DNA of 33,534 bases, taken from Nitrospirota bacterium (GTDB lineage Bacteria; Nitrospirota; Thermodesulfovibrionia; Thermodesulfovibrionales; JdFR-85). Both the position numbers and the translations under genes were made by a program. The stretch is from assembly GCA_015485235.1 (NCBI GenBank), contig WFTX01000073.1, positions 1 to 33,534 on the forward strand. Reading direction: 5' to 3'. Positions 3,414-18,980 of the stretch are shown piece after piece. Each line of letters opens with the position of its first letter. Position 1 is the stretch's first letter. The notes under the pieces were generated by a model that had not been told where the DNA came from, made no database searches, and was given only the letters and a program-made list of their open reading frames with translations.

Positions 3414-3640
3414 ATCGAAGATACCCTGCGGTCTTGCCGCAGGGTTCTTCTTTTTTTCTCTTTTTTCAAACCCCTTCGAATCTGTGAATATCTGTGTTCC
3501 ATTCTTTAGGGTAACAGACAGGTTAAGGCTGAGTCTCGGAGAACGCTGTGTTGGTCCGTGTCCGTCAGTTTTCTGATGTTTTATTGTCACTGTGTTACTG
3601 TGTCTTGACCCCAAAACCACGGAATCCTTTATAATCATTA
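3405..3640 (-). repeat. intergenic modular repeat, copy A (CCCTGCGG hairpin module + GGTTAAGG module + CAGTG module)
   Basis: The reverse complement of 3430-3450 is identical (21/21) to 10846-10866. gacaggttaaggctgag at 3517-3533 matches gacaggttaagg at 13841 and 13907. The CAGTG/CTGTG-rich stretch at 3560-3610 resembles 13916-13960 and 17545-17590. A perfect 9-bp hairpin pairs accctgcgg with ccgcagggt at 3423-3445. Confidence 0.75.
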
Positions 3641-6236: not shown

Positions 6237-6270
6237 AATCCTAAATTCTAAACACTAAGCCCTAAACAAA
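6236..6270 (-). repeat. left inverted arm (GATTTAGG-type module, reverse orientation) flanking four-helix-bundle gene 1
   Basis: aaatcctaaattctaaacactaagccctaaacaaa can pair with 6664-6698 at 28 Watson-Crick pairs plus 1 G-U over 35 positions (hand alignment). Confidence 0.7.
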
Positions 6271-6275
6271 TACAA

Positions 6276-6629
6276 ATGAGCAGAAATTCAAAACAGTATG
6301 ATCTGGAGGAGAGAACATTCATCTTTGCAAAAGAAGTAATCGACCTGGTAGATGATGTATCAAAAAGCCTGGTTAACCTGGAGATTGGTAAGCAACTTGT
6401 CCGTGCTGCTGGTTCTGTAGGTGCAAATCATATTGAAGCGAATGAATCTTTGAGCAAGAAGGATTTTATAATGCGGATAAAGATATGCAGGAAGGAATCC
6501 AAGGAGTCAAGATACTGGTTGAATTTGCTTAAATATAGGGATGGAATGGATGGCCGGAGGGATGCCCTTATTCAGGAAGCTACAGAACTGATGAAGATAT
6601 TTGGCGCCATCCTGGAGAAAAGCAAATAA
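6276..6629 (+). CDS. four-helix-bundle protein (TIGR02436 / Pfam 23S_rRNA_IVP family; Avd-like)
   Basis: 117 aa. Family-typical layout: FEERxFxFAxxV-like N-terminus (YDLEERTFIFAKEVIDLV), QLVRAAGSVGANHIEANES, FIMRIKICRKESKESRYWLNLL. Confidence 0.88.
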   Translation: MSRNSKQYDLEERTFIFAKEVIDLVDDVSKSLVNLEIGKQLVRAAGSVGANHIEANESLSKKDFIMRIKICRKESKESRYWLNLLKYRDGMDGRRDALIQEATELMKIFGAILEKSK

Positions 6630-6639
6630 TCTGCACAAA

Positions 6640-6698
6640 TTGTTTTGAGATTTGAATTTTGGAATTGTTTAGGATTTAGTAATTAGAAATTAGAATTT
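6640..6698 (+). repeat. GATTTAGG-type module (M4) copy; right inverted arm of four-helix-bundle cassette 1
   Basis: ttgttttgagatttgaattttggaattgtttaggatttagtaattagaaattagaattt is colinear with 13967-14027, 16613-16671 and 17588-17627. It ends about 8 nt before the AGGAGG of the next gene. Confidence 0.75.
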
Positions 6699-6719
6699 AA
6701 ACAACAGGAGGTTGATAAA

Positions 6720-7799: not shown

Positions 7800-7886
7800 A
7801 AGCATGAACCGTATAAGAAGCAGATTACGAAGTGTTCAGTGTAACCCGTGTTTTTTCCCTGTAACTGTTTCCATAGTTCAATCTAC

Positions 7887-7902
7887 TGTGTGAAAACACA
7901 CA
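7887..7902. promoter_or_regulatory. palindrome TGTGTG-AAAA-CACACA, possible activator site upstream of the sigma-54 promoter at 8054
   Basis: Perfect 6+4+6 palindrome about 150 bp upstream of the -24 element. Position fits an enhancer-binding-protein UAS, but this is a motif-only call. Confidence 0.3.
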
Positions 7903-8053
7903 TTCGGAGTTATTTCCCACATAAAATGAAGGACTTCCAAAAAAGGCCTAAGGTCATATGAACCATTTTGTGGGTTAAATAAGGTTTGTCGGTTATGTTA
8001 CTTATTGAAAAATAAACATATTTCACTAATGCTTCAAATATCTCTTCCGCTTC

Positions 8054-8069
8054 TGGCACGTGAGTTGCA
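8054..8069 (+). promoter_or_regulatory. sigma-54 (-24/-12) promoter for tetrahaem cytochrome A
   Basis: TGGCAC-gtgag-TTGCA matches the TGGCAC-N5-TTGCW consensus exactly. It lies about 100 nt upstream of the ATG at 8170. Confidence 0.75.
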
Positions 8070-8169
8070 TATATTAATGCAATAGAAACAAGGACATGAT
8101 TCAGGAGGTGTGATTATGAGAAAGATAATGTTTGATTCTTATAAATCCCTAATGAAAGGAGGTGAACAA

Positions 8170-8826: not shown

Positions 8827-8862
8827 TATATTAAGTGAATCGGGAGAAAGGCAAGATTTTTT

Positions 8863-8897
8863 AAAAGGAGCGGGTTTGAAACCCGCTCCTTTTATTT
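8863..8897 (+). terminator. Rho-independent terminator after tetrahaem cytochrome A
   Basis: A 13-bp stem pairs aaaaggagcgggt (8863-8875) with acccgctcctttt (8881-8893) around a 5-nt loop. It is followed by a T-rich tail (ttttatttg). Confidence 0.85.
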
Positions 8898-9018
8898 GCT
8901 TCAATAAGTAATGTTGTCTGCATACAGACACCAAGAAAGCCCTTTTGTTGTTACTTTGCTGTTAGACGTCAATTAGGTGCTAAACTAAACGGGGAATAAA
9001 TAAGGAAGTTCTGACTTG

Positions 9019-10809
9019 ATGGGCACAGGTATAAATGAAAAATTCAGTCCTCTATTGGGGAAACTCCTTGTCTTTGTTTTTTTTATTGTCTTTGCCATTT
9101 CAATAGTTCGCCCTATCATCGATCCTGATCTCTTCTGGCACCTTGCCACTGGCAAGTGGATCGTCGAGCATAAAACCTTGCCTGCAGAAGATCCCTTTTC
9201 CTTTACCACCCAACGATATGCCTATGAAGAGTTCGACAGGACCAGGTTCATCCTAAGGCAATACTGGCTGGGTCAGATAATAATATATCTTTGTAACCAA
9301 ATGGCAGGATACTGGGGCAATATAGGATTCAGGGTAATTCTTTTCCTGGGCATACTCTTTCTGCTTAATCGATGGTTGAAGGAAGATAATATTGACCCTT
9401 TAGCGCGGGTTTTGTTTCTTGTGCCTTCAGGAATGATACTCAGTCTTTTTGTCGGTGACCGTCCCAACCAGATGACTTATCTGTTCTCCGTGATCATGTT
9501 CTATCTGCTAAAAAAATATCGACAAGGCGAAAATAGAGCGGGTTACCTGATGATCCCGGTGATGATCCTCTGGTCAAACATACATGGCGGGTTCATATTG
9601 GGTGATGTCTTGCTTGTAATTAGCCTCTCCCTGGCTTGTATAAGTTATCTTGTAAGAACAAAAGAGGGGAAATCAAACGCTGATATCGCCAAAAAGGGAG
9701 CACTCAGGGATGTCGTCGTTTTTAGCTCTTCAATTCTTGCCTCCTTTGTTAACCCAAATCATATCAAGGTGGTTTTTACCCTTCTGGAATCCCGGTCCTT
9801 TTATAAGTTCAGCGTCTTCGAAAACCTTACGCCTTTTCAGTATATGCAATATGGACAGAATATGTACGTTTATATCTTGGTGCTTTACCTTGTTATATTG
9901 TCTCCTGCGATTCTGTTAGCTTACAGACGAGATAAAAAAGGGGGTATTTTCTTTGGTTTAACGGCGTTATTTCTTACGGGACTTTCCACTATGGGAGTCA
10001 GATACATGCCTTTTACAGCACTTCTTCTTACACCCCTTGTTGCAAGAGAATATGGACCATATATCAACAGAGGCAAAGGTGTTGTATTTAAGGCCGTAAT
10101 TGCCTTAATAATCCTCTCTGTTTTTATATACAATGCCAGATCTCCTCTCCTGAAAGCCGGGAGATCTTTGCCACCATTAAGTTCAAACTTTCCGACTAAT
10201 ATAGTCCGGTTTGTAAAGAGTGAGGGCATCAAAGGCAATGTTTTCAATACATATTCCATTGGTGGATACCTCATATGGACACTTTATCCAGATGTGAGAG
10301 TATTCATAGATGGAAGAGGACTGGTGCAAAGGGTATTTTACGCATATAAGAGAATTGTGAAAGGAGATCAGAGCATTATTGAGGGTGTGCCTGTCTGGAA
10401 GGCCCTACTCGAGAGTTATAAGATAAAATACGCGCTCATAGAGCCGACTGATATTATTGGTGGAATGAGGGATATAGTTATACGGCTTGTTGAGGATCCT
10501 GAGTGGAGGCTTAATTACATTGATGAAGTATCCAATGTGATGTTATTCTCCAAAGATCCTGCGTTGCAGGAAATCCCTGGCATCCTTGCTTATGCCGATA
10601 TTTTGAAGATTTCTCTCCTGAATGTAAGAAACATGCCCGACAACCCGCAGGGGTATGTTACTCTTGCAAAGATTTATACTCTACTTGGAAAAAGAGGAAG
10701 AGCTATTGCTACCCTTGAGGGAGCGATAAGAAACCATCCTGCATGGGGGGAGGGCTTCATAGGTCAACTGCTTGATTATATAAAGAAAAACGAGATCGTA
10801 AGGTGGTGA
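9019..10809 (+). CDS. large polytopic membrane protein, GT-C-like (ArnT/PMT-style) putative glycosyltransferase with soluble C-terminal domain and TPR-like tail
   Basis: About 12-14 hydrophobic helices. An acidic first-loop motif (IIDPDLFWHLATGKW) resembles the DxD/ExD loop of GT-C enzymes. The C-terminal ~200 aa are soluble and end in a TPR-like helix pair (YVTLAKIYTLLGKRGRAIATLEGAIRNHP). The ATG at 9019 directly follows the TTG at 9016. Family assignment is tentative. Confidence 0.7.
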   Translation: MGTGINEKFSPLLGKLLVFVFFIVFAISIVRPIIDPDLFWHLATGKWIVEHKTLPAEDPFSFTTQRYAYEEFDRTRFILRQYWLGQIIIYLCNQMAGYWGNIGFRVILFLGILFLLNRWLKEDNIDPLARVLFLVPSGMILSLFVGDRPNQMTYLFSVIMFYLLKKYRQGENRAGYLMIPVMILWSNIHGGFILGDVLLVISLSLACISYLVRTKEGKSNADIAKKGALRDVVVFSSSILASFVNPNHIKVVFTLLESRSFYKFSVFENLTPFQYMQYGQNMYVYILVLYLVILSPAILLAYRRDKKGGIFFGLTALFLTGLSTMGVRYMPFTALLLTPLVAREYGPYINRGKGVVFKAVIALIILSVFIYNARSPLLKAGRSLPPLSSNFPTNIVRFVKSEGIKGNVFNTYSIGGYLIWTLYPDVRVFIDGRGLVQRVFYAYKRIVKGDQSIIEGVPVWKALLESYKIKYALIEPTDIIGGMRDIVIRLVEDPEWRLNYIDEVSNVMLFSKDPALQEIPGILAYADILKISLLNVRNMPDNPQGYVTLAKIYTLLGKRGRAIATLEGAIRNHPAWGEGFIGQLLDYIKKNEIVRW

Positions 10810-10845
10810 TGTATCAAATCCTGAACAAATCCACTATCTTAAAAT

Positions 10846-11040
10846 GAAGAACCCTGCGGCAAGACCACGTGGATCGATATGATTAAAAATGCGCTCGCTG
10901 TGCATATTCAAGACGGTATTGGCCACAGATGACACAGAAAAAAACGATTTTCACTGATCTCCTCAACCTCGACCTCAGCCTGTCTTATTGCTTTTCCCTG
11001 CCCGCTACCCGCTGTTTTTTAAACCTCAGCCTTGACCTGT
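10846..11040 (-). repeat. intergenic modular repeat, copy C (all modules in reverse orientation)
   Basis: gaagaaccctgcggcaagacc (10846-10866) is the reverse complement of 3430-3450. ccacagatgacacagaaaaaaacgattttcactgatc is the reverse of the CAGTG module. ctcctcaacctcgacctcagcc (10959-10980) and aaacctcagccttgacctgt (11021-11040) are reversed GGTTGAGG modules. ccctgcccgctacccgc (10996-11012) is the reversed GCGGGTAGCG module. Confidence 0.75.
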
Positions 11041-11047
11041 GTTGCTA

Positions 11048-11204: not shown

Positions 11205-11465
11205 ATGATGAAAGGACTTCTGCATTATCGAACCAGGGAGGGCAAAAATACTTACAGGACAATAGACCTCACTTTCTGTTCCGGTGAGGATGATTCTGTG
11301 TTCAGTGAGGAGGGAGTGGTGGAACTCAGAAAGAGGCGGCTCAGAAGAATCCTTGAGGAGGCGGCAATGCAGGACGTTCACCTCAGTTACCGGGACCTTG
11401 AACTGATACTCTCCACATCCCGGTCTACGTTGAAGAGGGATATGAGGATGCTCAGAATGGGGTAG
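11205..11465 (+). CDS. DUF1670-like helix-turn-helix protein, repeat unit 1 (ends at in-frame TAG)
   Basis: GGAGG lies 7 nt upstream of the start. The core LRKRRLRRILEEAAMQDVHLSYRDLELILSTSRSTLKRDMRML is paralogous to the next ORF. The family name comes from memory of DUF1670-type sequences and is not verified. Confidence 0.7.
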   Translation: MMKGLLHYRTREGKNTYRTIDLTFCSGEDDSVFSEEGVVELRKRRLRRILEEAAMQDVHLSYRDLELILSTSRSTLKRDMRMLRMG

Positions 11466-11468
11466 AGA

Positions 11469-11834
11469 ATGAATTTCGGAACGATTGAATATATATGCGA
11501 AGTGTCCGATAAGAATGAGAAGGGCTACAGGGTTTTGAACCTTACCCTTGTGGATGAGGAAGACGGTGATATCTTTAGGGAAAACGGACTCATGGAACTC
11601 AGACGCAGGCGGATATTGAGACTTGTGAGGGAGGCAGCCGAACAGGGTTGTACCCTTTCTTACGGTGACTTGGCAAAAATACTTCTCACCTCTGTTGCAA
11701 CCCTTAAAAGGGATATTGTGGTTCTGGAGAAGAGAGGGGAGTACATTCCGCTTCGGGGGAGGAGAAAATATCCCTTGGACGAGGGAGAGAAGAAAAAGGT
11801 TATATCTGATATGATAAAGGACAGGGTGGGATGA
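11469..11834 (+). CDS. DUF1670-like helix-turn-helix protein, repeat unit 2
   Basis: Same frame as the previous ORF, separated only by TAG-AGA. The core LRRRRILRLVREAAEQGCTLSYGDLAKILLTSVATLKRDIVVLEKRGEYIPLRG is present. The stop overlaps the next start (ATGA at 11831-11834). Confidence 0.7.
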   Translation: MNFGTIEYICEVSDKNEKGYRVLNLTLVDEEDGDIFRENGLMELRRRRILRLVREAAEQGCTLSYGDLAKILLTSVATLKRDIVVLEKRGEYIPLRGRRKYPLDEGEKKKVISDMIKDRVG

Positions 11835-13822
11835 AGGGGCTTTCTCGCATTGCTGATACATTCAGAATGAACCCATCTGGCTGGTTTTGTCAGCCAGTGG
11901 TTTTTTTTATTGCTTTATTGTTTCTTTTCTTTGAGCCAGCTCTGAGCAACATTGTTTCCGAGAAGGGAAATTTCTCTCAGGCTGGCATGGCTGAAGCACG
12001 TTCAATGGGCGGCGAGTCCGAAATCAGGTGGCTGTTATACAAGAAATATCTGATCTATGGAGATATCGGACTGGAATATGAGAAACAAACGAGGGAGACT
12101 ACTCAGGATGATGTAACAACAAAGTATGACGCTGACAGTTTTGTTCAGAGATACAGGGTGAATTTTAAAAGTTACATTTATCATCCCAAACTGGTTACTT
12201 ATACCCTGGGAGTAGACTTGAACCTGACTTCAGGAGAACTTAACAGGATAGATCTCAAACGGTATTTTATGAATCTTAAGTTTCTCAGAACCAAGCCATT
12301 CAATTTTGAAATCAGGGCTGAATATCGAGATGGTGAGGACTATACCGGTTTCAGCCAAGGGGTTACGATGGTTTATATCAGGAAGAGAAAGAAAATAGGA
12401 TTCAGAAACATGCGGGAATATACTCTATGGCTCAACCAGCAGAGACTTAACAGAAGAAACCAGAACCAGAACCAGAATCAAAATCAGAATCAGAACAGAA
12501 ATAATGCCAATCTTAATCAGGAAAATCTGAACCAGGAAAAAGAAAATCAGAATACAAACAGAAATGCTAACCAGAATATTATGAACAGGACCATTCCCAA
12601 ACCAAAGAGAAGTCTTATCGACAGGGTGCTTCCTGTAATATTTATATTTGATTTTGACCGCATTCAGAGCTCAACTGATGATGGTGATACAACTGATTAT
12701 CTTGGGACACTACGCATGAAGGGAGATTTCAAAACTGAAAAAACCCGCACCAACTATTTTCTGAATTTTTCCTATTATGACCTTACCAGTGACTTTAGTG
12801 AAGATTCCACTAAATTTACTTTCTCCGCAAAATCACTGACTACAATCAATAAAATAGATAGAATGGAGTGGGAAGCCCGCTATAGCCTCAGGGAAAAAAG
12901 TTCATCTGAAAATTCATATAGTATTGATGGCACCTACTCGGGTTATTTCAAGGATAAGATCTGGAATTATCAGTTGAATCTAAGATATTATCAAAGAGAA
13001 GGAGATACAAGCTATTCATTAATCGGTTATGCCGGAAGAAAAGATGAATACAAGAACTTCCATCTTTTGTACCGTCTGGGTGCCAAGTACCAAAGGGATG
13101 ACCTTATCAATAAGGATAATATAGGGGTTTTTGGTACCATAACGGCTAACCGGAGACTTTCTGCTCGTCAGTCGCTTCTGCTTTCCTCAAGACTGGATGT
13201 TGGAACCGAAACAAACATACTGAATGCAAGGGCGGAAACGAGGTATATACTTTCCAGTAAACTTCTTTTATTTGGAAGCTATGACTTTTTTACCGGTACT
13301 GGAAATTATACTTATGAACTTGGTGGTGCTGCTGATGACCGAACACGGCACCAGATCAGAATTGGTCTGAATGGAAACTACAGGTCTGTATTTTTCCATT
13401 CGATTTTGTCCTACTTGTATCAAGATAGTAGTAACTCCATACTTTGGGATAACGCAGCGAGATGGGTCTTTTTCAACAGGGTCAGGTTCACACTCGGTCT
13501 CAGGGCAGAATGGCATGACACCACGAATGCTGGTGATAATACGGAAGGCTTGAATAATACAGATAAGGAAACTACCATCTCCGTATATAATCTTATCATG
13601 TTTTCTCCATGGTACAGATCGGCTGTCAGAATATACAGTCGCTATGAAAAAACCATTAATGGTAAAGAGTCAACGCATTACAATGTAAAACCTGAGTTTA
13701 TTTGGAGGATTCGGAGATTGTATCTGAGTATGAGATACGAATATATTTATGACAAAGTCCTTTCTAACGAGATCACAGAGCAGAAATTCTATGTGCGTCT
13801 CACAAGGCCCTTCTGGTTTTAG
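11831..13822 (+). CDS. predicted outer-membrane beta-barrel protein (663 aa) with N/Q-rich low-complexity insert
   Basis: An N-terminal hydrophobic signal (VVFFIALLFLFFEPALS) is present. Long runs of alternating aromatic/polar strands occur (YRVNFKSYIYH, YFLNFSYYDL, YQLNLRYYQ, RYEYIYD). The C-terminus ends in an aromatic residue (RLTRPFWF), as in BAM substrates. The start is translationally coupled to the upstream ORF. Confidence 0.8.
   Translation: MKGLSRIADTFRMNPSGWFCQPVVFFIALLFLFFEPALSNIVSEKGNFSQAGMAEARSMGGESEIRWLLYKKYLIYGDIGLEYEKQTRETTQDDVTTKYDADSFVQRYRVNFKSYIYHPKLVTYTLGVDLNLTSGELNRIDLKRYFMNLKFLRTKPFNFEIRAEYRDGEDYTGFSQGVTMVYIRKRKKIGFRNMREYTLWLNQQRLNRRNQNQNQNQNQNQNRNNANLNQENLNQEKENQNTNRNANQNIMNRTIPKPKRSLIDRVLPVIFIFDFDRIQSSTDDGDTTDYLGTLRMKGDFKTEKTRTNYFLNFSYYDLTSDFSEDSTKFTFSAKSLTTINKIDRMEWEARYSLREKSSSENSYSIDGTYSGYFKDKIWNYQLNLRYYQREGDTSYSLIGYAGRKDEYKNFHLLYRLGAKYQRDDLINKDNIGVFGTITANRRLSARQSLLLSSRLDVGTETNILNARAETRYILSSKLLLFGSYDFFTGTGNYTYELGGAADDRTRHQIRIGLNGNYRSVFFHSILSYLYQDSSNSILWDNAARWVFFNRVRFTLGLRAEWHDTTNAGDNTEGLNNTDKETTISVYNLIMFSPWYRSAVRIYSRYEKTINGKESTHYNVKPEFIWRIRRLYLSMRYEYIYDKVLSNEITEQKFYVRLTRPFWF
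12458..12496 (+). repeat. in-frame hexanucleotide microsatellite (AACCAG/AATCAG)n encoding (NQ)n inside the OMP gene
   Basis: The sequence reads aaccag aaccag aaccag aatcaa aatcag aatcag aac. The wider N/Q/E-rich tract runs to about 12576 (NQNQNQNQNQNQNRNNANLNQENLNQEKENQNTNRNANQN). Confidence 0.85.
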
Positions 13823-13840
13823 AAGAAAGCGGGTATAAAT

Positions 13841-14027
13841 GACAGGTTAAGGTTGAGGCCGAGGTTGAGAAAGAAAGCGTGTAGCGTATAGCGGATAGGA
13901 AAGGATGACAGGTTAAGGAGATCAGTGTGAATCTGTTTTTTCAGTGTTCATCAGTGTCCTATAAAGTTTTGGATTTAGGTAATTTGAATTTGTTTCAGGA
14001 TTTAGAGATTAGGATTTAGGATTTGTT
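13841..14027 (+). repeat. intergenic modular repeat, copy D (M1 GGTTGAGG - M3 GCGTGTAGCG - M1 - M2 CAGTG - M4 GATTTAGG)
   Basis: The module sequences are gacaggttaaggttgaggccgaggttgag, gcgtgtagcgtatagcggatagg, gacaggttaaggag, atcagtgtgaatctgttttttcagtgttcatcagtgtcc and ttttggatttaggtaatttgaatttgtttcaggatttagagattaggatttaggattt. Module order is the same as in copies E and F. Confidence 0.8.
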
Positions 14028-14044
14028 TTATGAAAGGAGTCTTG

Positions 14045-15007
14045 ATGAAAAACAGTATATCTGTCTTAGTTGTTTTGTTGATGATTCTCGTATCTCCCCT
14101 CAGCAGCCTTGCTGGAGTGAAAGTTGTTGCCAGGGTTAACGGTGAACCCATAACCGAGCGGGATCTGATGATTGCGGTTCAGAAGAAGATTCCCATGATA
14201 AGTTTTCACAGAAACGTCTCTAAGGAAAAGCTGATGGCTATAAAAAAGGATGTTCTCCAGGATCTGATAAACGATGAACTGATTTACCAGGATGCGAAGG
14301 GAAAGGTGGCCGTTTCGGAGGAGGAACTTGAAAAGGAGATGGAGAAGGTAAGAAAGAGGTTCAAATCTGAGAAGGACTATAAACAGGCGATCGTGAAGTC
14401 AGGCACGACTGAATCGGCCTTGAAGGAGAGATACAGACGGGAACTTATGATCAGGAAAATGAAGGAGAAGGAAATTTACAGAAAGGCAGAGGTGACCGAG
14501 GCTGAGGCAAGAAGGTACTATGAACAGAACAAGGGTCGATTCCTTGCGCCTGAAAAACTGAAACTCTGGGAGATTTTCCTTGAGGTTCCGCCTAACGCTA
14601 CCAGGGAAGAGAGGGAGGCGAAGAGGAAAAAGGCGGAGGAGATACTCCAGAGAATCAGGAAGGGTGAGGACTTTGGCCGGCTTGCGTGGGATTATTCTGA
14701 AGACCGCTATAAATACAAGTCCGGGGAATTAGGGTATATCCACCGTGGAAGGCTCAATCCTGAAGTGGAAAGGGCACTCAAGAATGTTAAAGCGGGTGAG
14801 ATAACAGATGTTATTGAAACAATCTACGGTTATTACATCTTCAAGGTGGGTGAGATTGTTCCGCCGAAGCAGCTCTCCTTTGATGAGGCCAAGAAAAAAC
14901 TTATCCGCCAGTTGCGGGAGTCACGGGCAAAAAAATTAAGAGAAGAGTACTTAAAGAGACTGAGGAAGAAGGCGAAGATAGAGATATTCATGGAAAAAAC
15001 AGGTTGA
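14045..15007 (+). CDS. SurA-like periplasmic chaperone / parvulin-type (PpiC) peptidyl-prolyl cis-trans isomerase
   Basis: AAGGAG lies 6 nt before the ATG at 14045; the listed ORF begins at 14030. The signal is MKNSISVLVVLLMILVSPLSSLA|G. A SurA_N-like helical region is followed by a rotamase core (LWEIFLEV...GEDFGRLAWDYSED...GELGYIHRGRLNPEVERAL...GEITDVIETIYGYYIFKV). Confidence 0.88.
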   Translation: MKNSISVLVVLLMILVSPLSSLAGVKVVARVNGEPITERDLMIAVQKKIPMISFHRNVSKEKLMAIKKDVLQDLINDELIYQDAKGKVAVSEEELEKEMEKVRKRFKSEKDYKQAIVKSGTTESALKERYRRELMIRKMKEKEIYRKAEVTEAEARRYYEQNKGRFLAPEKLKLWEIFLEVPPNATREEREAKRKKAEEILQRIRKGEDFGRLAWDYSEDRYKYKSGELGYIHRGRLNPEVERALKNVKAGEITDVIETIYGYYIFKVGEIVPPKQLSFDEAKKKLIRQLRESRAKKLREEYLKRLRKKAKIEIFMEKTG

Positions 15008-15028
15008 GGTTAAGGTTGAGGTCGAGAA
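15001..15028 (+). repeat. GGTTGAGG-type module (M1); left inverted arm of four-helix-bundle cassette 2
   Basis: aggttgaggttaaggttgaggtcgagaag overlaps the PPIase stop codon. 15002-15022 is the perfect reverse complement of 15469-15489 (21/21). Confidence 0.85.
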
Positions 15029-15029
15029 G

Positions 15030-15395
15030 TTGTACAGGGATTTCAGAGAAATGCCAGTCTGGCAAACAGCGATGCAGGTAGCAACAGAAATTTATGAATT
15101 GACAGAAGAATTACCCCGTAAGGAGGATTTTTGCTATACAACACAGATAAGGAAGGCTGCCCTGAGTATCCCGGCCAATATTGCAGAGGCATTTGGTCGT
15201 GAGCATAGTAAAGATAAAATTAACTTTTATTATTTTGCCAGGGGTTCGATAATGGAAACCATCAGTCACCTGGAGTACGGAAAGAGAGTTAATTATTTAA
15301 GTGAAGAAAGTGTCAGATCAATAAGTAATTTGCTTGAAACACTGGCTGCAGACCTGAACAAGTTGATAAAATCTCTAAGAAGTAATAAAGGGTGA
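15030..15395 (+). CDS. four-helix-bundle protein (TIGR02436 / 23S_rRNA_IVP family; Avd-like), TTG start
   Basis: The N-terminus YRDFREMPVWQTAMQVATEIYELT matches the family's YxDLxVWQKA-type start, which supports the TTG at 15030. Further matches: IRKAALSIPANIAEAFGR, FYYFARGSIMETISHLEY. Confidence 0.85.
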   Translation: MYRDFREMPVWQTAMQVATEIYELTEELPRKEDFCYTTQIRKAALSIPANIAEAFGREHSKDKINFYYFARGSIMETISHLEYGKRVNYLSEESVRSISNLLETLAADLNKLIKSLRSNKG

Positions 15396-15399
15396 TAGC

Positions 15400-16518
15400 A
15401 TGAGAAATTGTATTCATCATATACCAGTGAAACTTTCAACTTCTGCCGTTACCTTTTTCCTCTCCTTAACCTCAACCTTAACCTCAACCTTGGCCTTAAC
15501 CTTGGCCTCAACCTTGGCCTTAACCTTCGGTTTATTCTCCTGCTCTCCCCCGGTCCACCACGCCCAGATTGATGATTCTTACAGGGGAAAGCTCGTCTGG
15601 CCGCCACCACCTGAGAAGCCCCGGATAGAGTATCTCTGGTCCTTTTACAAGTTTCTGCCGGAAGGCAGAAACCTTGCCGACTATGTGGCAGGTGAACAGG
15701 GCGGCCTTGATGATCCGGCAACACTGCCCTATCTGATGAGACCGTTCTCGCTTTTTGTCAGAGAAGGCAGGATATATATTGTCGATCAGGGCCCTCCCCG
15801 GATTACAGTGCTAAATATGAAGACAAGGGAGGTGTCTCACTTCGGGGTTTCCGGTGAAGGCAAACTTGTTTTTCCAGTGGGCATAGTGGTTGGTGCCGAT
15901 GGGACCGTATATGTGAGCGATGCTGAGACAGGCAGGGTGAACAGGTATGACCGGCAGGGGAAGTTTATCGGATATCTCCCGGAAAAGATGGCATTCAGGA
16001 GACCGACAGGCCTCGGGATTGATTCTGAAGGCAATATCTATGTTGCCGATACATCAGCACACAGGATAAGGATATATTCACCGGACGGGAAACTTATCAG
16101 AAAGTTTGGTAAAAGGGGCAGCAAGGACGGGGAACTGAACTTTCCCACTCACCTCTGGGTCAAGGGTGAAAAGATATATGTCACAGATGCGATGAATTTC
16201 CGTATCCAGATATTCAACAAAGAAGGGCAGTTCCTGGGGAAGTTCGGACAACCCGGTGATACCTATGCCGATCTTGAAAGGCCCAAGGGTGTTGCAGTTG
16301 ACTCCTTTGGCCATATCTATGTGGTTGATACCCTTCAGGCAAGGGTGAAGATCTTTGACGAAAAGGGGAGGATCCTGCTCTTCTTCGGGGAAGAGGGCCG
16401 TTCCCCCGGAAAGTTCATAATGCCTGCTGGCATATTTATAGATGACAGTAATACAATATATGTTGCAGATACTTACAATATGAGGGTCCAGGCATTCAGG
16501 CTGCTGGACGGGAAGTAA
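15400..16518 (+). CDS. NHL-repeat lipoprotein, paralog 3; signal-peptide h-region encoded by a reversed M1 simple repeat
   Basis: The lipobox is TFGLFSC|S and the VWPPPPEKPRI motif follows. NHL repeats include PVGIVVGADGTVYVSDAETGRVNRY, PTGLGIDSEGNIYVADTSAHRIRIY, PKGVAVDSFGHIYVVDTLQARVKIF and PAGIFIDDSNTIYVADTYNMRVQAF. Residues LSLTSTLTSTLALTLASTLALT are translated from 15461-15538. Confidence 0.88.
   Translation: MRNCIHHIPVKLSTSAVTFFLSLTSTLTSTLALTLASTLALTFGLFSCSPPVHHAQIDDSYRGKLVWPPPPEKPRIEYLWSFYKFLPEGRNLADYVAGEQGGLDDPATLPYLMRPFSLFVREGRIYIVDQGPPRITVLNMKTREVSHFGVSGEGKLVFPVGIVVGADGTVYVSDAETGRVNRYDRQGKFIGYLPEKMAFRRPTGLGIDSEGNIYVADTSAHRIRIYSPDGKLIRKFGKRGSKDGELNFPTHLWVKGEKIYVTDAMNFRIQIFNKEGQFLGKFGQPGDTYADLERPKGVAVDSFGHIYVVDTLQARVKIFDEKGRILLFFGEEGRSPGKFIMPAGIFIDDSNTIYVADTYNMRVQAFRLLDGK
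15461..15538 (-). repeat. reversed GGTTGAGG-type module (M1); right inverted arm of four-helix-bundle cassette 2, lying inside the NHL paralog 3 ORF
   Basis: The sequence ctccttaacctcaaccttaacctcaaccttggccttaaccttggcctcaaccttggccttaaccttcgg has 6-nt periodicity. It is complementary to M1 copies at 15001, 13841, 16521 and 17496. Confidence 0.85.
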
Positions 16519-16520
16519 TT

Positions 16521-16671
16521 TTAAGGTTGAGGTTGAGGTCAAGAGCGTGTAGCATGAAGCGGGTAGCGTATGGCGTGCGGGAAGATGGACAGATTTAAGT
16601 CCGTGTCCAGGGAGTTTGGAATTTTGGTATTTGAAAATTGTTTAGAATTTAGAGAGTAGGATTTAGAAATT
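16521..16671 (+). repeat. intergenic modular repeat, copy E (M1 - M3 - M2-like - M4)
   Basis: The module sequences are ttaaggttgaggttgaggtcaagag, gcgtgtagcatgaagcgggtagcgtatggcgtgcggg, gacagatttaagtccgtgtccaggg and gtttggaattttggtatttgaaaattgtttagaatttagagagtaggatttagaaatt. Confidence 0.8.
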
Positions 16672-16692
16672 CCCATAGTGAGGTGTAAGTTA

Positions 16693-17481
16693 ATGAAGAA
16701 GGTGGTTAGCGCTGTTGTTACAGTGATTTTCATACTCTCGGTTGCGGTCGTGGTATGGGCCGGTATTGCAAATACAAAGCATAACCTCTCAGTAACCGGG
16801 CCGGGAACTATAAAGGCAGTAAGTGAGACGAGGATCTGTGTCTTCTGTCATACACCCCACGGTGCAAGCCCTGCAAGGCCCCTCTGGAACCATACATTGA
16901 GTTCCCAGACGTATACACTGCCTACTTCTTCAGACCCACAGTGGTCCAATCTCCTCACTACGGTCCAGCAGCCTGACGGGGACACAAGGCTCTGTCTGAG
17001 CTGTCACGACGGTACAGTGGCTATAGGTTCGGTAGTGAACCTTCCCGGTCCGGCAGGTGGCGCCGGTACAATATCCATGCAGGGTACAGCCGGTGGTCTC
17101 ATGCCACCAGCTGCTTATGGTTTTATAGGAACCGATCTCTCCGGCACACACCCCGTTTCCATTGCGATGAATGATGCCTTGATCAATGACAAGAATGCCT
17201 GCACACAGACCGGAGCTTACACGCTACAGTACCCTCCTGGAGGAGGGGCCGTCAGGCTGAGGCCAACGAGCAACACCTATAACGGTCAGCCCGGACAGTT
17301 GATAACTACTCCAACTGGTTTTACATACAATGGAGGGGTTCAGTGTACTTCGTGTCATGATCCCCATATTGAAACAACGGATTTCCTTGTCCTTGGTACA
17401 GGAAGTCCTGATCCCACAAAGGGGCATCCAGGCAACTGGTCTGCCCTGTGTGATACGTGTCACCCGGGTACATGTCCGTGA
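16693..17481 (+). CDS. small secreted tetrahaem c-type cytochrome, paralog B
   Basis: GTGAGGTG lies about 8 nt before the ATG at 16693. The signal is MKKVVSAVVTVIFILSVAVVVWA|G. Four CXXCH motifs: CVFCH, CLSCH, CTSCH, CDTCH. It shares the blocks KHNLS, CVFCHTPHGA, PLWN, CLSCHDG, NLPGPAGG, HPVS and CTSCHDPH with paralogs A and C. Confidence 0.92.
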   Translation: MKKVVSAVVTVIFILSVAVVVWAGIANTKHNLSVTGPGTIKAVSETRICVFCHTPHGASPARPLWNHTLSSQTYTLPTSSDPQWSNLLTTVQQPDGDTRLCLSCHDGTVAIGSVVNLPGPAGGAGTISMQGTAGGLMPPAAYGFIGTDLSGTHPVSIAMNDALINDKNACTQTGAYTLQYPPGGGAVRLRPTSNTYNGQPGQLITTPTGFTYNGGVQCTSCHDPHIETTDFLVLGTGSPDPTKGHPGNWSALCDTCHPGTCP

Positions 17482-17495
17482 GGGGGGAGAAGATA

Positions 17496-17627
17496 GGGTG
17501 AGGTCAAGGTCGAGGTTGAGGTTGAGGTCGAGGTTGAGGTTGAGGAGAATCTGTGATGGTCGGTTTGTTTCAGTGTCATCTGTGTGCTATTTGGTTTAGG
17601 ATTTAGATATTCGGATTTAGGATTTCT
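17496..17627 (+). repeat. intergenic modular repeat, copy F (long M1 - M2 - M4)
   Basis: M1 is gggtgaggtcaaggtcgaggttgaggttgaggtcgaggttgaggttgaggag, with nine GG dinucleotides at 6-nt spacing. It is followed by gaatctgtgatggtcggtttgtttcagtgtcatctgtgtgc and tatttggtttaggatttagatattcggatttaggatttc. Confidence 0.8.
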
Positions 17628-17647
17628 AAAAGATCGGGGTATTTGAT

Positions 17648-18637
17648 ATGAAAAAAGCAATCAAAACAGTACTGCTGACAATAGCTGCTTTCATTATGGC
17701 TTCTTCAGGGATCAGGGCTGAGACTCCTACCCATCTCAATGGTTTCAAGGTAAAGTTTACCTGTGCAGCATGCCATAGCGGTCATGGTAAAAGAGGAACC
17801 CCGATGCTGCGGGAAGATGTCCCGGACCTTTGCTACGAATGTCACGGTCCTTCGGGTTACGCCTACTTTAATACTTCCAATGAGGTTTATTATGAATTCC
17901 TGAAGAGATACCGGCATCCTGTTGAAGAGACTGGAAGGTACCACAGACAGACTGAGATACTTCCGGAAAGGGAAAGGCTGGTTGAGAGACATGTGAGCTG
18001 CCTTGACTGTCATAATCCGCATGTTTCAACACCATCCGAGCCTAATGCCGGAGTCCCCGGTGAATCTCTGAACCGGATAAGGCAAAAGCCGGCGGAGAAT
18101 ATAAACGATATATGTTTCAAGTGCCATTCCGACAACTTGAATAGACCACCATCAAGCCTTGATGTCAAAGAAGAATTTGATACTTTAAATCCCTCATACC
18201 ATCCGGTACTGGGGGTTTCGAGAGGAAGGAGCGTAAGCGTTCTGCCTGAGCTGAAGGGAAAAACCATAGGATGTACAGACTGCCATACCCCCCATGGCTC
18301 GGATTATGAGGATATGCTTAGATACAATTATAACCGCTCAGATGGACCGGAAACAGCTTTTTCCTATGCACTGTGCTACCAATGTCACAAGAGAGATAAT
18401 ATACTTGGAGATCGGGGATTCAGCCAGCACAGGAGGCATATAGTTTTTGAAAACGCATCTTGCAGGGCCTGTCACATTGCCCATGGCAGCAGTGAAAATG
18501 CGAGGCTCATAGGCTTTGACCCTGCCATAGTTACTCCCAACTCACAGGGCATGCTTCTTTATGAAAGAATCGGAGGTGAAAGTCGTTGTTTCCTTCGCTG
18601 TCACGACACGGACCACAGGGGTGATAAGATCCAATAG
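17648..18637 (+). CDS. octahaem c-type cytochrome (7 CXXCH + 1 CX3CH), periplasmic-type
   Basis: The signal is MKKAIKTVLLTIAAFIMASSGIRA|E. Haem motifs are CAACH, CYECH, CLDCH, CFKCH, CTDCH, CYQCH, CRACH and the atypical CFLRCH at 18587-18604. Spacing between motifs is of the doubled-CXXCH type. Confidence 0.92.
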   Translation: MKKAIKTVLLTIAAFIMASSGIRAETPTHLNGFKVKFTCAACHSGHGKRGTPMLREDVPDLCYECHGPSGYAYFNTSNEVYYEFLKRYRHPVEETGRYHRQTEILPERERLVERHVSCLDCHNPHVSTPSEPNAGVPGESLNRIRQKPAENINDICFKCHSDNLNRPPSSLDVKEEFDTLNPSYHPVLGVSRGRSVSVLPELKGKTIGCTDCHTPHGSDYEDMLRYNYNRSDGPETAFSYALCYQCHKRDNILGDRGFSQHRRHIVFENASCRACHIAHGSSENARLIGFDPAIVTPNSQGMLLYERIGGESRCFLRCHDTDHRGDKIQ

Positions 18638-18798
18638 GGGGATAAAATATACGGGATTTCACCCATGGCTGAGTATTATCACACACTCACAGGAGAGAAT
18701 ATCTCAGGCTCCATATACCGTGAGACTTGCAATGTTTCCGGCACCGGAACTCGCCGGATGAATGAAATTTAATCTTTTTCAGGAAAAATATTTCTATA

Positions 18799-18830
18799 TC
18801 AGTTAGTTAGTCAAGAGATTAACTAACTGA
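18799..18830. promoter_or_regulatory. 32-bp near-perfect palindrome, candidate enhancer-binding-protein UAS for the sigma-54 promoter at 18891
   Basis: tcagttagtta-gtcaagagat-taactaactga has perfect 11-nt arms. Its centre lies about 75 bp upstream of the -24 element. Confidence 0.45.
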
Positions 18831-18890
18831 GCAAAGGTGGCACTCTTTGAGTATGCTAATTTTTTATGTTTTTACCAGATGTTAAGTGCC

Positions 18891-18906
18891 TGGCATAAAG
18901 TTTGCT
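18891..18906 (+). promoter_or_regulatory. sigma-54 (-24/-12) promoter for the tetrahaem C / giant cytochrome operon
   Basis: TGGCAT-aaagt-TTGCT fits TGGCAY-N5-TTGCW. It lies about 75 nt upstream of the ATG at 18981. A tandem tttgtatatg x2 (18927-18946) sits in the predicted leader. Confidence 0.7.
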
Positions 18907-18980
18907 TTCTAATCTTACAGGCATACTTTTGTATATGTTTGTATATGACTGTTTCATGATAATTTAAGGAGGATATCGAG

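Follow-up and report, generated by a model that had tools for sequence, protein, structure and literature searches.

Inverted tandem-repeat arms around PF05635 genes in a Nitrospirota cytochrome gene cluster: probable IVS-like cassettes and their remnants

Many of the spacers between the genes of a Nitrospirota cytochrome/NHL/PPIase cluster are filled with short repeat modules (M1 to M5). We analysed the whole contig stretch of 33,534 nt that contains them (hereafter the window) together with related loci from other genomes. We found that two small genes in the repeat field encode four-helix-bundle proteins of the PF05635/TIGR02436 family, and that each lies between inverted copies of one module. 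The probable explanation is that M1, M3 and M4 are the inverted-repeat stem arms, and the leftovers, of selfish cassettes that carry a PF05635/TIGR02436 gene and resemble the intervening sequences (IVSs) of 23S rRNA. This assessment is a joint one and covers the cassette architecture, the remnants and processing by RNase III. The architecture, its generality, the insertion status of the modules and the predicted stems come from the comparisons reported here; from these we infer the rest, including the mechanism of mobility and any effect of the cassettes on expression.

Repeat modules and cassettes of the window

M1 is a hexamer array, (AGGTYR)n, with a period of 6, and M3 is a heptamer array, (AGCGKRT)n, with a period of 7 (TRF). 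M4 consists of an outer half built of AGGATTT heptamers (period 7; TRF) and an inner part of ~35 nt, and M2 contains TCWGTGT repeats. M5, listed by a preceding sequence-only reading as a simple recurring repeat, proved to be one half, on the 3′ side, of a terminator-like hairpin that spans 3423–3445. Repeat finding and TRF recovered the same module families, and a recognisable copy is present at each position where that reading had placed one. The modules are genuine features that chance falls far short of explaining: a degenerate M4 pattern has 5 matches in the window versus 0.00 expected, and the M1 pattern (GGTYRAGG)x has 21 overlapping matches in 6 arrays versus 0.01 expected. An assembly artefact is ruled out by two independent assemblies of the module-bearing sequence (99.7–99.8% identity) and by four JGI contigs of a sister species with modules at the same junctions. 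No module matched Rfam, either at gathering thresholds over the whole window or at permissive thresholds over 13800–17700. In 1.1 Mb of unrelated loci the M1, M3 and strict M2 patterns were not found, and a loose M2 pattern gave 9 scattered matches.

The module order and the extent of the field differ in part from what had been described. The order M1-M3-M2-M4 holds in sense orientation at 13841–14027 and 16521–16671 but not at 17496–17627, where M3 is missing, and the copies at 10846–11040 and 3405–3640 have other orders. Spacing is irregular, as stated, but the modules do have a repeat unit, being degenerate tandem arrays with a period. The modules were said to fill nearly every spacer; of the ~12 spacers that exceed 20 nt in the region from 3.4 to 19 kb, they occupy 8. 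The cluster had also been treated as one operon. However, the strong terminator at 8827–9015 and the sigma54-type promoters, all in module-free spacers (Table 1), mean that it is not a single operon. We agree that this is no CRISPR array, as the units are 6–7 nt long, tandem and irregularly spaced with genes between them, and there is no constant 24–48 nt repeat regularly spaced by unique spacers.

An M1 array absent from the first description (15001–15029) completes the second of two intact cassettes, one with M4 arms (6236–6698) and one with M1 arms (15001–15527). The left arm of cassette 1 ends at the start codon of its PF05635 gene (gene 1) and pairs with 6632–6700 (–29.4 kcal/mol, z –5.6); 21 nt separate the end of the right arm from the GTG of the NHL gene that follows. 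In cassette 2, the left arm overlaps the TGA with which the PPIase gene stops and runs up to the TTG start codon of gene 2. The right arm lies inside the predicted signal-peptide region of an NHL lipoprotein gene (15400–16518), forms a duplex with 14998–15032 (–46.8 kcal/mol, z –7.2) and shows a 12-nt slippage indel between the assemblies. Both genes pass the TIGR02436 cut-off and neither passes the Avd cut-off (gene 1: TIGR02436 70.7 bits, cut-off 24, and PDB 2RLD 3.7e–11; gene 2: TIGR02436 118 bits and PDB 2GSC 6.8e–17). There is no rRNA in the window, and its module copies sit between protein genes. A domain scan that covered unknown proteins of the window revealed no transposase or integrase in or beside the cassettes, and no obvious target-site duplication was seen by eye at their ends. 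PADLOC returned no match, and a defence system was discarded on that result. An integron gene cassette was likewise rejected, since the repeats lie on both sides of the ORF instead of forming one 3′ attC and the scanned window proteins include no integrase.

Table 1. Coordinates of cassettes, arrays and module-free spacers in the window
Feature	Coordinates	Strand	Evidence or content
Cassette 1 left arm, M4 reverse complement	6236–6282	–	nhmmer M4 profile match, minus strand
PF05635/TIGR02436 four-helix-bundle gene 1, 117 aa, cassette 1 cargo	6276–6629	+	Pfam 2.2e–14
Cassette 1 right arm, M4	6636–6698	+	Pattern and nhmmer M4 profile
Cassette 2 left arm, M1 hexamer array	15001–15029	+	Repeat families, M1 pattern
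PF05635/TIGR02436 four-helix-bundle gene 2, 121 aa, cassette 2 cargo	15030–15395	+	Pfam 5.5e–34
Cassette 2 right arm, M1 reverse complement, ~11 hexamers	15461–15527	–	Repeat finding, TRF
Spacer A, solo sense arrays	13841–14027	+	M4 by nhmmer profile
Spacer A, parts			M1 13844–13869; M3 13876–13899; short M1 13910–13921; M2 13922–13959
Spacer A, full M4 right arm	13960–14024
Spacer B, solo sense arrays	16521–16671	+	M1 16521–16544; M3 16545–16582; weak M2
Spacer B, full M4 right arm	16601–16671
Spacer C, solo sense arrays	17495–17625	+	9-unit M1 17495–17548; M2 17549–17588; no M3
Spacer C, truncated M4	17594–17625
Spacer D, reversed composite	10841–11040	–	Minus-strand order M1-M3-M1-M2, then M5 half-hairpin
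Region E, divergent intergenic	3423–3610	+	Terminator-like hairpin with M5 3423–3445; short M1 3518–3531; also M2-like CTGTG/CAGTG repeats
Module-free spacer	7800–8109		sigma54-type promoter
Module-free spacer	18638–18980		sigma54-type promoter
Module-free spacer	8827–9015		Strong terminator

Solo copies of the modules are sense-oriented and end 20–33 nt before start codons. No significant local fold was found for the solo sense arrays of spacers A, B and C (z 0.0 and –1.7 for spacer A), and these arrays are most likely one-armed remnants of cassettes. Duplication of genes together with their upstream regions does not account for them, as the genes downstream of spacers A, B and C and of 6640–6698 belong to three unrelated families. 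Spacer A also forms an inverted composite with 10915–11045. Its inverted partner is spacer D, which lies across a 2.8-kb insertion of two DUF1670 genes and a 663-aa gene; the duplex of the two spacers extends over 98 bp (–112.7 kcal/mol, z –10.2).

The modules are insertions, because a syntenic Nitrospirae operon (L343) has no module and near-zero spacers, most of its junctions measuring –4 to +20 nt; this empty-site relative is too diverged for base-level comparison. The whole block that includes spacer D is absent from it. In the sister species (L339–L342), a PF05635 gene with M3-type arms is found at the same SurA–NHL junction and is only 28% identical. Comparison with the sister species shows that the window has lost one M4 block flanked by two M2 direct repeats; the sigma54 promoter downstream of this block is kept in both. 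In spacers A and C, both species retain the M2–M4 junction at a conserved position. The M1 array of spacer C has 9 units in the window versus ~1.5 in the sister species.

PF05635 genes and M4 elements in other genomes

Inverted arrays of 6–7-nt units flank all 8 PF05635 genes that we sampled first, with a different unit at each locus. Relatives were then collected with a four-sequence PF05635 alignment, a seven-sequence one being too diverse. Complementary flanks (z of at least 4) are present at 57 of the 71 metagenomic gene 1 relatives with usable flanks versus 3 of 91 control ORFs from the same loci. A score of at least 30 was reached by none of the 91 controls and by 57 of 84 PF05635 genes with usable flanks when all were pooled. 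The flanking arms of gene 1 relatives are of M4 type, and in most of 77 metagenomic relatives the M4 right arm is found after the stop codon. Gene 2 relatives have M1-type hexamer arms at all four distinct loci fetched (L203 from Thermodesulfovibrio yellowstonii, L204, L207 and L208), with AAGATT or AAGGCA in place of some GG units. Each PF05635 subfamily thus has its own arm type, M4 for gene 1, M1 for gene 2 and M3 for the third, which is that of the sister species. PF05635 genes point in the same direction as the upstream neighbour in 46 of 53 cases and as the downstream neighbour in 46 of 52, and the median gap from the gene to the next start is 90 nt. Related cassettes also occur in fatty-acid, polysaccharide and rRNA operons. 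No M2-type arms were seen around the 84 PF05635 genes; M2 is not among the cassette arms sampled and so stays outside the cassette explanation, which counts against it.

One could ascribe the arrays to neutral slippage of low-complexity DNA, with no relation to one another or to neighbouring genes. The 12-nt copy-number difference between assemblies and the variable unit numbers in the sister species (as for M1 of spacer C) agree with this. However, the inverted pairs bracket one gene family far more often than control ORFs, each PF05635 subfamily is associated with its own type of arm, and the non-repetitive inner 35 nt of M4 are conserved across phyla. Neutral slippage is already contradicted by arm pairing and by subfamily-specific arms, and we consider it very improbable.

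A different picture emerges when the search starts from M4 instead of from the protein. A PF05635 gene lies within 8 kb of an M4 match at only 6 of 120 reference-genome loci (128-sequence HMM); the majority of M4 copies in genomes are therefore plain arrays or hairpins without an ORF. It is only from the protein side that the link between M4 and PF05635 becomes visible. The ORF-less M4 hairpins occur in many phyla, and the element also turns up in Patescibacteria and in contigs assigned by binning to ANME-1 archaea. Its ~65-nt arm is near-identical across many phyla, and the M4 element is normally accompanied by its TCC-rich complement. ORF-less hairpins are abundant in our sample, where 24 of 25 are intergenic and often occupy the entire spacer. 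Among viral contigs, a strict M4 pattern was found on 9; the M1 pattern had more than 119 matches there with no PF05635 gene nearby and is too unspecific in such sequences. M4 hairpins are also located in the loops of helix 25 and helix 45 of one Paceibacterota 23S rRNA (L036). IVSs that carry S23p ORFs and are excised by RNase III are located at these helices (PMC4990558), as are, according to passages of PMC11270868, short non-intron insertions in CPR bacteria.

RNAalifold analysis of 25 ORF-less M4 hairpins returned only 16 conserved pairs, 2 of them with compensatory change. Due to the small number of compensatory pairs and to the many arms that are only 75–80% complementary, M4 arms resemble sequence-conserved termini more than they do a covarying RNA helix. 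This is what one would expect if the arms were DNA-level terminal inverted repeats of a MITE-like element, with ORF-bearing copies "autonomous-like" and ORF-less copies "non-autonomous", moved by a recombinase or by the PF05635 pentamer, and with RNA pairing incidental. Terminal inverted repeats typical of MITEs and TIR transposons are indeed present. The near-identity of the arm across phyla, the insertion polymorphism and cassette replacement at one junction, the abundance of intergenic ORF-less hairpins and the M4-type sequences on viral contigs also speak for such an element. However, no catalytic motif is known in the small helical bundle of PF05635, and the strong co-orientation with host transcription and the presence at rRNA helix tips fit selection at the RNA level. 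That the scanned proteins included no transposase or integrase, and that no target-site duplication was seen by eye, counts against a MITE-like element, as it does against the cassette explanation. Though unlikely, a MITE-like origin is compatible with the cassette explanation and does not exclude it.

Pairing in the transcript and regulatory alternatives

In predicted RNA folds, the long-range stem that dominates both the MFE and the centroid structure is, for each of the two PF05635 genes, the one formed by its flanking arms (z –2.5 and –3.9), and arm–arm duplexes lie 5–10 sd below dinucleotide shuffles (z –5.6 to –10.2). An earlier suggestion that sense and antisense copies pair into long dsRNA is supported by these stems and duplex scores and with the hairpins of the same arm type at IVS sites. 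By analogy with 23S rRNA IVSs, such stems may be cleaved by RNase III.

Overall, we suggest that the cassettes would insert in sense orientation at junctions of co-directional operons and be transcribed from the host promoter. The two arms would pair in the transcript to form a 30–40-bp imperfect stem around the ORF, and RNase III would cut this stem as it does in 23S rRNA IVSs, thereby segmenting the polycistronic mRNA at the cassette. In this lineage, a once compact cytochrome/NHL/PPIase operon was probably invaded at almost every junction. The cassettes would subsequently decay via slippage and recombination between direct repeats, leaving sense solo arrays that fill the spacers to ~20 nt before the next start codon. 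Solo arrays could also pair with distant antisense copies, e.g. 15461–15527 with 17495–17548. Some observations do not sit easily with this scheme. Stems of old copies are broken every 4–5 bp, which makes them poor RNase III substrates; the strong sense bias of solo arrays is not predicted by simple decay alone; and RNase III acting on the stem of cassette 2 would cut within what is predicted to be coding sequence of the NHL gene that follows.

Regulatory roles for the modules had been put forward from sequence inspection. GG recurs in M1 at 6-nt intervals, with as many as 9 tracts, and M1 was therefore proposed to form two-tetrad RNA G-quadruplexes. We find this scarcely credible: none of the M1 arrays forms a quadruplex in a G4-aware MFE fold, AAGATT and AAGGCA units break the G-tracts in homologous arms, and M1 at intact cassettes is always accompanied by a C-rich inverted partner. 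Binding of a CsrA/RsmA-type repressor to GGA motifs of M4 is not borne out either. The M4 units are interchangeable (AGAATTT, AGTGCTT, AGATATT), GGA being freely replaced by GAA, TGC or ATA, and no significant local hairpin was found. M4 also ends 20–33 nt before start codons without SD overlap, and its usual TCC-rich complement and its presence in ANME-1-binned contigs and Patescibacteria speak against such binding as well. Control of cytochrome stoichiometry is not supported, given that cassettes are also found in fatty-acid, polysaccharide and rRNA operons and that a syntenic cytochrome operon works without modules; the modules are not cytochrome-specific regulators.

A more general possibility is that solo sense arrays are cis-regulatory protein-binding sites in 5′ leaders, recognised by CsrA, cold-shock or S1-type proteins, by the PF05635 pentamer or by 30S subunits. 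M4 ends ~20 nt before the start codon, M1 contains repeated Shine-Dalgarno-like GAGGT/AAGGT units, and the arrays, which lack any secondary structure of their own, would be accessible. Solo M4 copies are in sense orientation and upstream of a start codon in 3 of 3 cases in the window, and likewise in the sister species, and the conserved M2–M4 junctions of spacers A and C point the same way. Forward heptamer arrays upstream of starts in Beggiatoaceae, Cyanobacteria and Bacteroidetes are interpreted in this manner in passages of PMC4679880. However, the position of the arrays follows from cassette geometry (right arm of ~65 nt, median gap of 90 nt), their units are interchangeable with no conservation of GGA, the same operon lacks arrays in L343, and one M4 block was lost in the window, the downstream sigma54 promoter being kept in both species. 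We therefore regard a cis-regulatory function as improbable and favour one-armed cassette remnants.

We also entertain, as a long shot, an extension of the cassette explanation in which PF05635/TIGR02436 proteins would bind their own 6–7-nt arms in a sequence-specific manner, with about five units per pentamer. The result would be a self-propagating cassette at operon junctions and rRNA helix tips across bacterial phyla, and possibly archaea, that seeds unexplained heptamer arrays. Few uncharacterised families of small proteins are as abundant in environmental bacteria as PF05635/TIGR02436, whose members are ancestors or cousins of the DGR protein Avd.

If the cassette explanation is correct, an orphan family whose members bear the label "four helix bundle protein" in thousands of annotations would acquire a nucleic-acid partner, and the idea of an intervening sequence would reach beyond rRNA to ordinary operons. 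Some, at least, of the puzzling hexamer and heptamer arrays found immediately before bacterial genes would also gain an origin that can be tested; spacers of this kind are not to be read as operon-specific regulatory RNA. Gene callers extend ORFs into the arms, as with the NHL lipoprotein signal peptide here, which is predicted from an M1 array. The arrays are prone to slippage and are sites of recombination and cassette turnover within conserved operons. The predictions on RNase III and protein binding are directly testable in a cultured carrier, Thermodesulfovibrio yellowstonii (cassette region, BSDX01000001 1846239–1866610), where the PF05635 gene has an epimerase gene on one side and a polysaccharide-synthesis gene on the other.

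Comparison with known systems

BIMEs/REP and MITEs such as Correia elements are likewise mosaic intergenic repeats that occupy operon spacers and form mRNA hairpins affecting processing, and Correia elements are cut by RNase III. In contrast to them, the elements described here have tandem simple-repeat arms and a conserved protein-coding cargo, with no RAYT or transposase partner. The cargo protein is homologous to bAvd, the DGR accessory protein, which is a pentameric four-helix bundle. Gene 2 matches the DGR Avd model at 2.7e–06, below its cut-off, with a weak PF22296 match, and no other DGR parts (reverse transcriptase, template repeat or variable repeat) were found in the window or at related loci.

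Heptamer repeats have been described as TAACTGA arrays (MacGregor 2015, PMC4679880), as cyanobacterial STRR and in Geobacter metallireducens (PMC2700814). As presented in passages of these sources, they are tandem 7-nt, intergenic and forward arrays tens of nt from a start codon, with a patchy spread across phyla that suggests transfer. M3 and the outer part of M4 have the same properties, M1 having a period of 6, and plain cyanobacterial (GAATTTA)n arrays matched our M4 pattern. However, the unit sequences differ, and the passages of PMC4679880 and PMC2700814 describe direct arrays only, with no inverted partner or PF05635 cargo.

The non-intron insertions in CPR 23S rRNA covered by passages of PMC11270868 are short (<200 bp), ORF-less and located at classical IVS sites, of which the Paceibacterota rRNA (L036) is one case; some CPR rRNA insertions contain 23S_rRNA_IVP ORFs. 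Unlike our analysis, these passages link the CPR insertions neither to a sequence family nor to intergenic elements.

The 23S rRNA IVSs with an S23p/IVP ORF, known from Leptospira, Coxiella burnetii, Brucella and Xanthomonas (PMC4990558), differ from the cassettes in several respects. The cassettes described here are found in protein-coding operons at gene junctions, their arms consist of 6–7-nt tandem units specific to the ORF subfamily, and one-armed remnants accumulate. RNase III excision is known for the rRNA IVSs, whereas here it is predicted by analogy. None of the copies in the window lies at the tip of 23S rRNA helix 9, 25 or 45. On the other hand, complementary termini that enclose a sense-oriented PF05635-family (S23p) ORF in a long stem are common to both systems, being predicted for the two cassettes and found in the same 57 of 71 relatives. 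In both, the ORF has no strong SD or promoter of its own and is transcribed within the host RNA, the distribution is sporadic and resembles horizontal transfer, and short ORF-less versions exist (PMC4990558). Moreover, the M4 arm type itself is present in helix 25 and helix 45 of the Paceibacterota 23S rRNA.

Repeat modules in the spacers of the cytochrome cluster

The window holds co-directional genes for multihaem cytochromes and NHL-repeat lipoproteins and one PPIase gene. Several of the spacers are built from repeat modules: M1, a hexamer array (AGGTYR)n; M2, a block of TCWGTGT repeats; M3, a heptamer array (AGCGKRT)n; and M4, AGGATTT heptamers with an inner part of about 35 nt. The module blocks reported in a sequence-only reading were found again at the coordinates listed there, and TRF and a repeat finder describe them as period-6 and period-7 arrays that also occur as inverted pairs. 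Their recurrence is far above chance level (M4 pattern, 5 matches in the window versus 0.00 expected; M1 pattern, 21 overlapping matches versus 0.01 expected). The modules are common to two independent assemblies (99.7–99.8% identity), one of which differs by two hexamers (12-nt indel) in the M1 array at 15497. Hence, they are not assembly artefacts. The fixed module order M1-M3-M2-M4 proposed earlier stands only in part: it fails for spacer C, which has no M3, and neither 10846-11040 (reversed) nor 3405-3640 follows it. M5, regarded as a further simple module, is actually half of a terminator-like hairpin. The cluster had also been read as a single operon; sigma54-type promoters and a strong terminator lie in module-free spacers, so it comprises more than one.

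Features of the window and their positions
Feature	Position	Composition and context
Spacer A	13841-14027	207-nt gap from a 663-aa gene without family match to a SurA-like PPIase gene; in order: (AGGTTR)4; (AGCGKRT)3; short AGGTTAAGG; block with three TCAGTGT repeats; 65-nt AT-rich block with AGGATTT heptamers at its end, 5-20 nt 5' of the start codon
Spacer B	16521-16671	
Spacer C	17496-17627	
Cassette 1, left arm	6236-6282	M4, reverse complement
Cassette 1, gene 1	6276-6629	PF05635
Cassette 1, right arm	6636-6698	M4, inverted relative to left arm
Cassette 2, left arm	15001-15029	M1; array overlooked in the sequence-only reading
Cassette 2, gene 2	15030-15395	PF05635
Cassette 2, right arm	15461-15527	M1, reverse complement; inverted relative to left arm
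2.8-kb block	11205-13822	two DUF1670/HTH genes and a 663-aa protein without family match
Inverted composite	10915-11045 and 13838-13965	98 bp, M1-M3-M1-M2
(AACCAG)n array	12458-12540	in the 663-aa gene, which has low G+C
Sigma54-type promoter	8044-8062	TGGCACGTGAGTTGCAT; module-free spacer 7800-8109; upstream of one of two paralogous 236-238-aa cytochrome genes; identical over about 20 nt in sister species L339
Sigma54-type promoter	18884-18900	TGGCATAAAGTTTGCT; module-free spacer 18638-18980; upstream of the paralogous cytochrome gene
Strong terminator	within 8827-9015	
9-nt tandem repeat	27683-27762	CAACGAAAT, about 9 copies; near the 5' end of the gene for a 1416-aa multihaem protein; encodes an (N-E-I/M)n run
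410-aa ORF	2406-3638, minus strand	first ~90 codons cross repeat region E and look spurious; lipoprotein-like start (MILAAIV...LSCSS) near 3362

PF05635 genes and their inverted arms

Two small PF05635 genes inside the cluster had escaped notice (gene 1 and gene 2; relatives with solved structures are 2RLD and 2GSC, respectively). Each lies between inverted module arms, and we refer to gene plus arms as a cassette. Bracketing of PF05635 genes by inverted arms is general. In the window and the first fetched loci, inverted arrays of 6-7-nt units flank 8/8 such genes, with a locus-specific unit (TTTGACT, TAATGAC, CAGATAC, TTTGAAT, ATTACGG, GTATCAA, AGGTTG or AGGATTT). A metagenome scan for relatives of gene 1 gave 80 loci (56–70% identity), and the 150 nt 5' of the start were compared with the 150 nt 3' of the stop. 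These flanks are complementary (z ≥ 4) in 57 of the 71 relatives with usable flanks. The inverted-repeat score reaches at least 30 in 57 of 84 pooled PF05635 genes with usable flanks, versus none of 91 other ORFs of the same loci, among which z ≥ 4 was seen in three.

Relatives of gene 1 have M4 arms: the left arm (...AAATCCTAAATCCGAAATTCTAAACAAATTCAA) extends to the ATG and the right arm (GTTTTGATATTTGAATTT...GTTTAGGATTTAG...AGGATTT) begins directly 3' of the stop. For gene 2, relatives (64–67% identity) come from four separate loci: a Thermodesulfovibrio yellowstonii polysaccharide operon, a fab operon, a cytochrome gene pair and a groundwater contig; all four carry M1-type hexamer arms (AAGGTTAAGGTTGAGG before the ATG, CTCAACCTTAACCTTAGCC past the stop). 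In a sister species (loci L339-L342, PPIase 88% identical), the same PPIase-NHL junction is occupied by another PF05635 gene, whose protein is only 28% identical to that of gene 2 and whose arms are M3-type (left AGCGTATAGCGTGGAGCGGATAGCG; right CCTACCCGCTACCCGCT..., several copies). Each of M1, M3 and M4 thus forms the arms of a single PF05635 subfamily, and arm type travels with ORF type. Because unrelated cassettes sit at this one junction (L339 8554-9200, M3 arms, versus window 15001-15530, M1 arms), the site is an insertion or replacement hot spot. M2 was not found as an arm around the 84 PF05635 genes; it is retained at the M2-M4 junction in both the window and the sister species. PF05635 genes are co-oriented with 87–88% of neighbour genes. 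Their stop codon lies a median of 90 nt from the next start, the length of one arm plus a ribosome-binding region. This geometry accounts for the 10-25 nt noted earlier between the end of M4 and the following start codon.

The right arm of cassette 2 falls inside the predicted signal-peptide coding region of the next lipoprotein gene (window 15400-15540), as do the equivalent arms in loci L208 (687-780) and L339 (8945-9180). It is translated in frame as the N-terminal/hydrophobic part of the signal peptide (LTSTLTSTLALTLASTLALTFGLFSC in the window), the indel between assemblies is in frame, and the lipobox Cys is common to all orthologues. Either the arm has become part of the coding sequence or the start codons were called wrongly. 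Cutting of this arm would truncate the downstream lipoprotein mRNA.

Insertion and turnover between species

A syntenic Nitrospirae MAG (PPIase 46% identical) has the gene order of the window (FGE-sulfatase, cytochrome, NHL, NHL, cytochrome, 605-aa protein, PPIase, NHL, cytochrome, cytochrome). Its junctions mostly measure –4 to +20 nt, and the syntenic operon has zero matches to M1, M2, M3 and M4. The window modules are insertions: relative to this MAG, the window gained both PF05635 cassettes, the repeat-filled spacers A, B and C, and the 2.8-kb block. The composite bracketing this block pairs at –112.7 kcal/mol (z –10.2), and the block may be a separate mobile unit.

Turnover is also visible against sister species L339. 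Spacer C has nine M1 units in the window versus two M3 and about 1.5 M1 units in L339, where the first M1 array of spacer A is gone. After the NHL gene L339 has an M3-M2-M4-M2 block, of which the window keeps a degenerate M3 and one M2; a deletion running from one M2 direct repeat to the other fits this loss of the M4-containing part. In both species, an identical sigma54 promoter follows downstream of the block. Solo arrays, that is, one-armed module runs lacking a PF05635 ORF, are abundant as M1 in the genome with an M1-armed cassette and as M3 in the genome with an M3-armed one. All are in sense orientation, which could reflect directional insertion or RNA-level selection. Spacer B of L339 holds an extra insert of ~190 nt (10230-10420) with GC-rich inverted segments (..gcttcgctaccgctcagcatgac..), similar to sequences adjoining M4 arms in loci L029 and L118; it may be another repeat family.

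RNA folding, M4 in other phyla and the cassette model

The arm-arm stem is present in the predicted MFE and centroid RNA folds of both cassettes (z = –2.5 and –3.9; 0/100 shuffles equal). The arm duplex of cassette 1 (37 bp, –29.4 kcal/mol) lies 5.6 sd below dinucleotide shuffles and that of cassette 2 (30 bp, –46.8 kcal/mol) 7.2 sd below. Solo spacers have no significant secondary structure of their own (z from +0.7 to –1.7), and the only pairing partners open to them would be antisense copies at a distance, as in 15455-15530 versus 17490-17552 (56 bp, –92.5 kcal/mol). Covariation is weak in 25 ORF-less hairpins (16 conserved pairs, 2 with compensatory changes) and many arms are complementary at only about 75–80%. 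We therefore do not regard the helix as proven by covariation; what is recognised in the arms may be their sequence. Three of the roles suggested earlier gained no support. A G4-aware fold predicts no G-quadruplex, and GG tracts are lost in homologous arms. CsrA binding is disfavoured: GGA varies among copies, M4 and the SD do not overlap, and lineages as distant as Patescibacteria and ANME-1 bins carry the element. Control of cytochrome stoichiometry is countered by the same cassettes in unrelated operons and by a syntenic operon that lacks them.

An M4 pattern scan of reference genomes gave at least 120 loci in many phyla. The matches listed form two classes: plain (GAATTTA)n arrays, mainly in cyanobacteria, and a complex ~65-nt element, near-identical over many groups (Planctomycetota, Patescibacteria, Omnitrophota, Verrucomicrobiota, Bacteroidales, Gammaproteobacteria, Desulfobacteria, Aminicenantia, an Actinomycetes MAG and contigs binned as ANME-1). 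Among the matches listed, 25 have a reverse-complement arm followed directly by a sense arm, giving a 120-175-nt ORF-less hairpin; 24 of the 25 are intergenic, and many span the whole gap between two genes. On a Paceibacterota contig, two M4 hairpins lie within the 23S rRNA gene, in the helix-25 region and the helix 45 loop. Helices 25 and 45 are the classical sites of intervening sequences (IVSs), which RNase III excises and which have complementary termini and sometimes an S23p (PF05635) ORF (PMC4990558). A catalogue for CPR bacteria places short non-intron insertions at the same sites (PMC11270868).

Further M4 occurrences were noted. The Paceibacterota hairpins occupy both IVS sites in 5205-8000 of L036 (Ca. 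Paceibacterota DATLZO010000019), and the helix-25 insert has an outer stem (TATCGCTATCGCTC / GAGCGGTAGCGAGG) similar to M3. M4-type arms also occur in archaeal bins (ANME-1 / Methanophagales; contigs L044 and L078), in L044 with inverted heptamer arrays (GTTCACG / CGTGAAC) on either side. Provided that these contigs are binned correctly, the element would have spread across domains. Nine IMG/VR viral contigs (L211-L219) match a strict 32-nt M4 pattern, and 0/9 have a PF05635 ORF. Such contigs could act as vectors of cross-phylum spread or be misclassified cellular DNA.

Overall, the feature is real, and IVS-like PF05635 cassettes with their remnants explain it in kind. In the best-supported model, an IVS-like cassette would insert at an operon junction and be transcribed through read-through; its RNA would fold so that the arms close a stem around the ORF. 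The analogy with rRNA IVSs suggests that RNase III would cut this stem. Through slippage and repeat-mediated deletion the cassette would decay to ORF-less hairpins and one-armed arrays. The data show how the cassettes are built, that this build is general and that they are insertions; cutting by RNase III, the route of cassette movement and any effect on cytochrome expression are inferred. In the open literature searched, PF05635 is tied to rRNA IVSs and DGR Avd, not to intergenic cassettes with subfamily-specific simple-repeat arms. Extracts of two reports describe heptamer arrays 5' of start codons and there make no connection to PF05635 cassettes (PMC4679880, PMC2700814). The novelty lies in a variant that sits in protein-coding operons and whose arms are built from repeats and specific to the subfamily. 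The rRNA IVSs (PMC4990558) and the window cassettes share complementary termini and a PF05635 ORF, the latter being present in IVSs sometimes.
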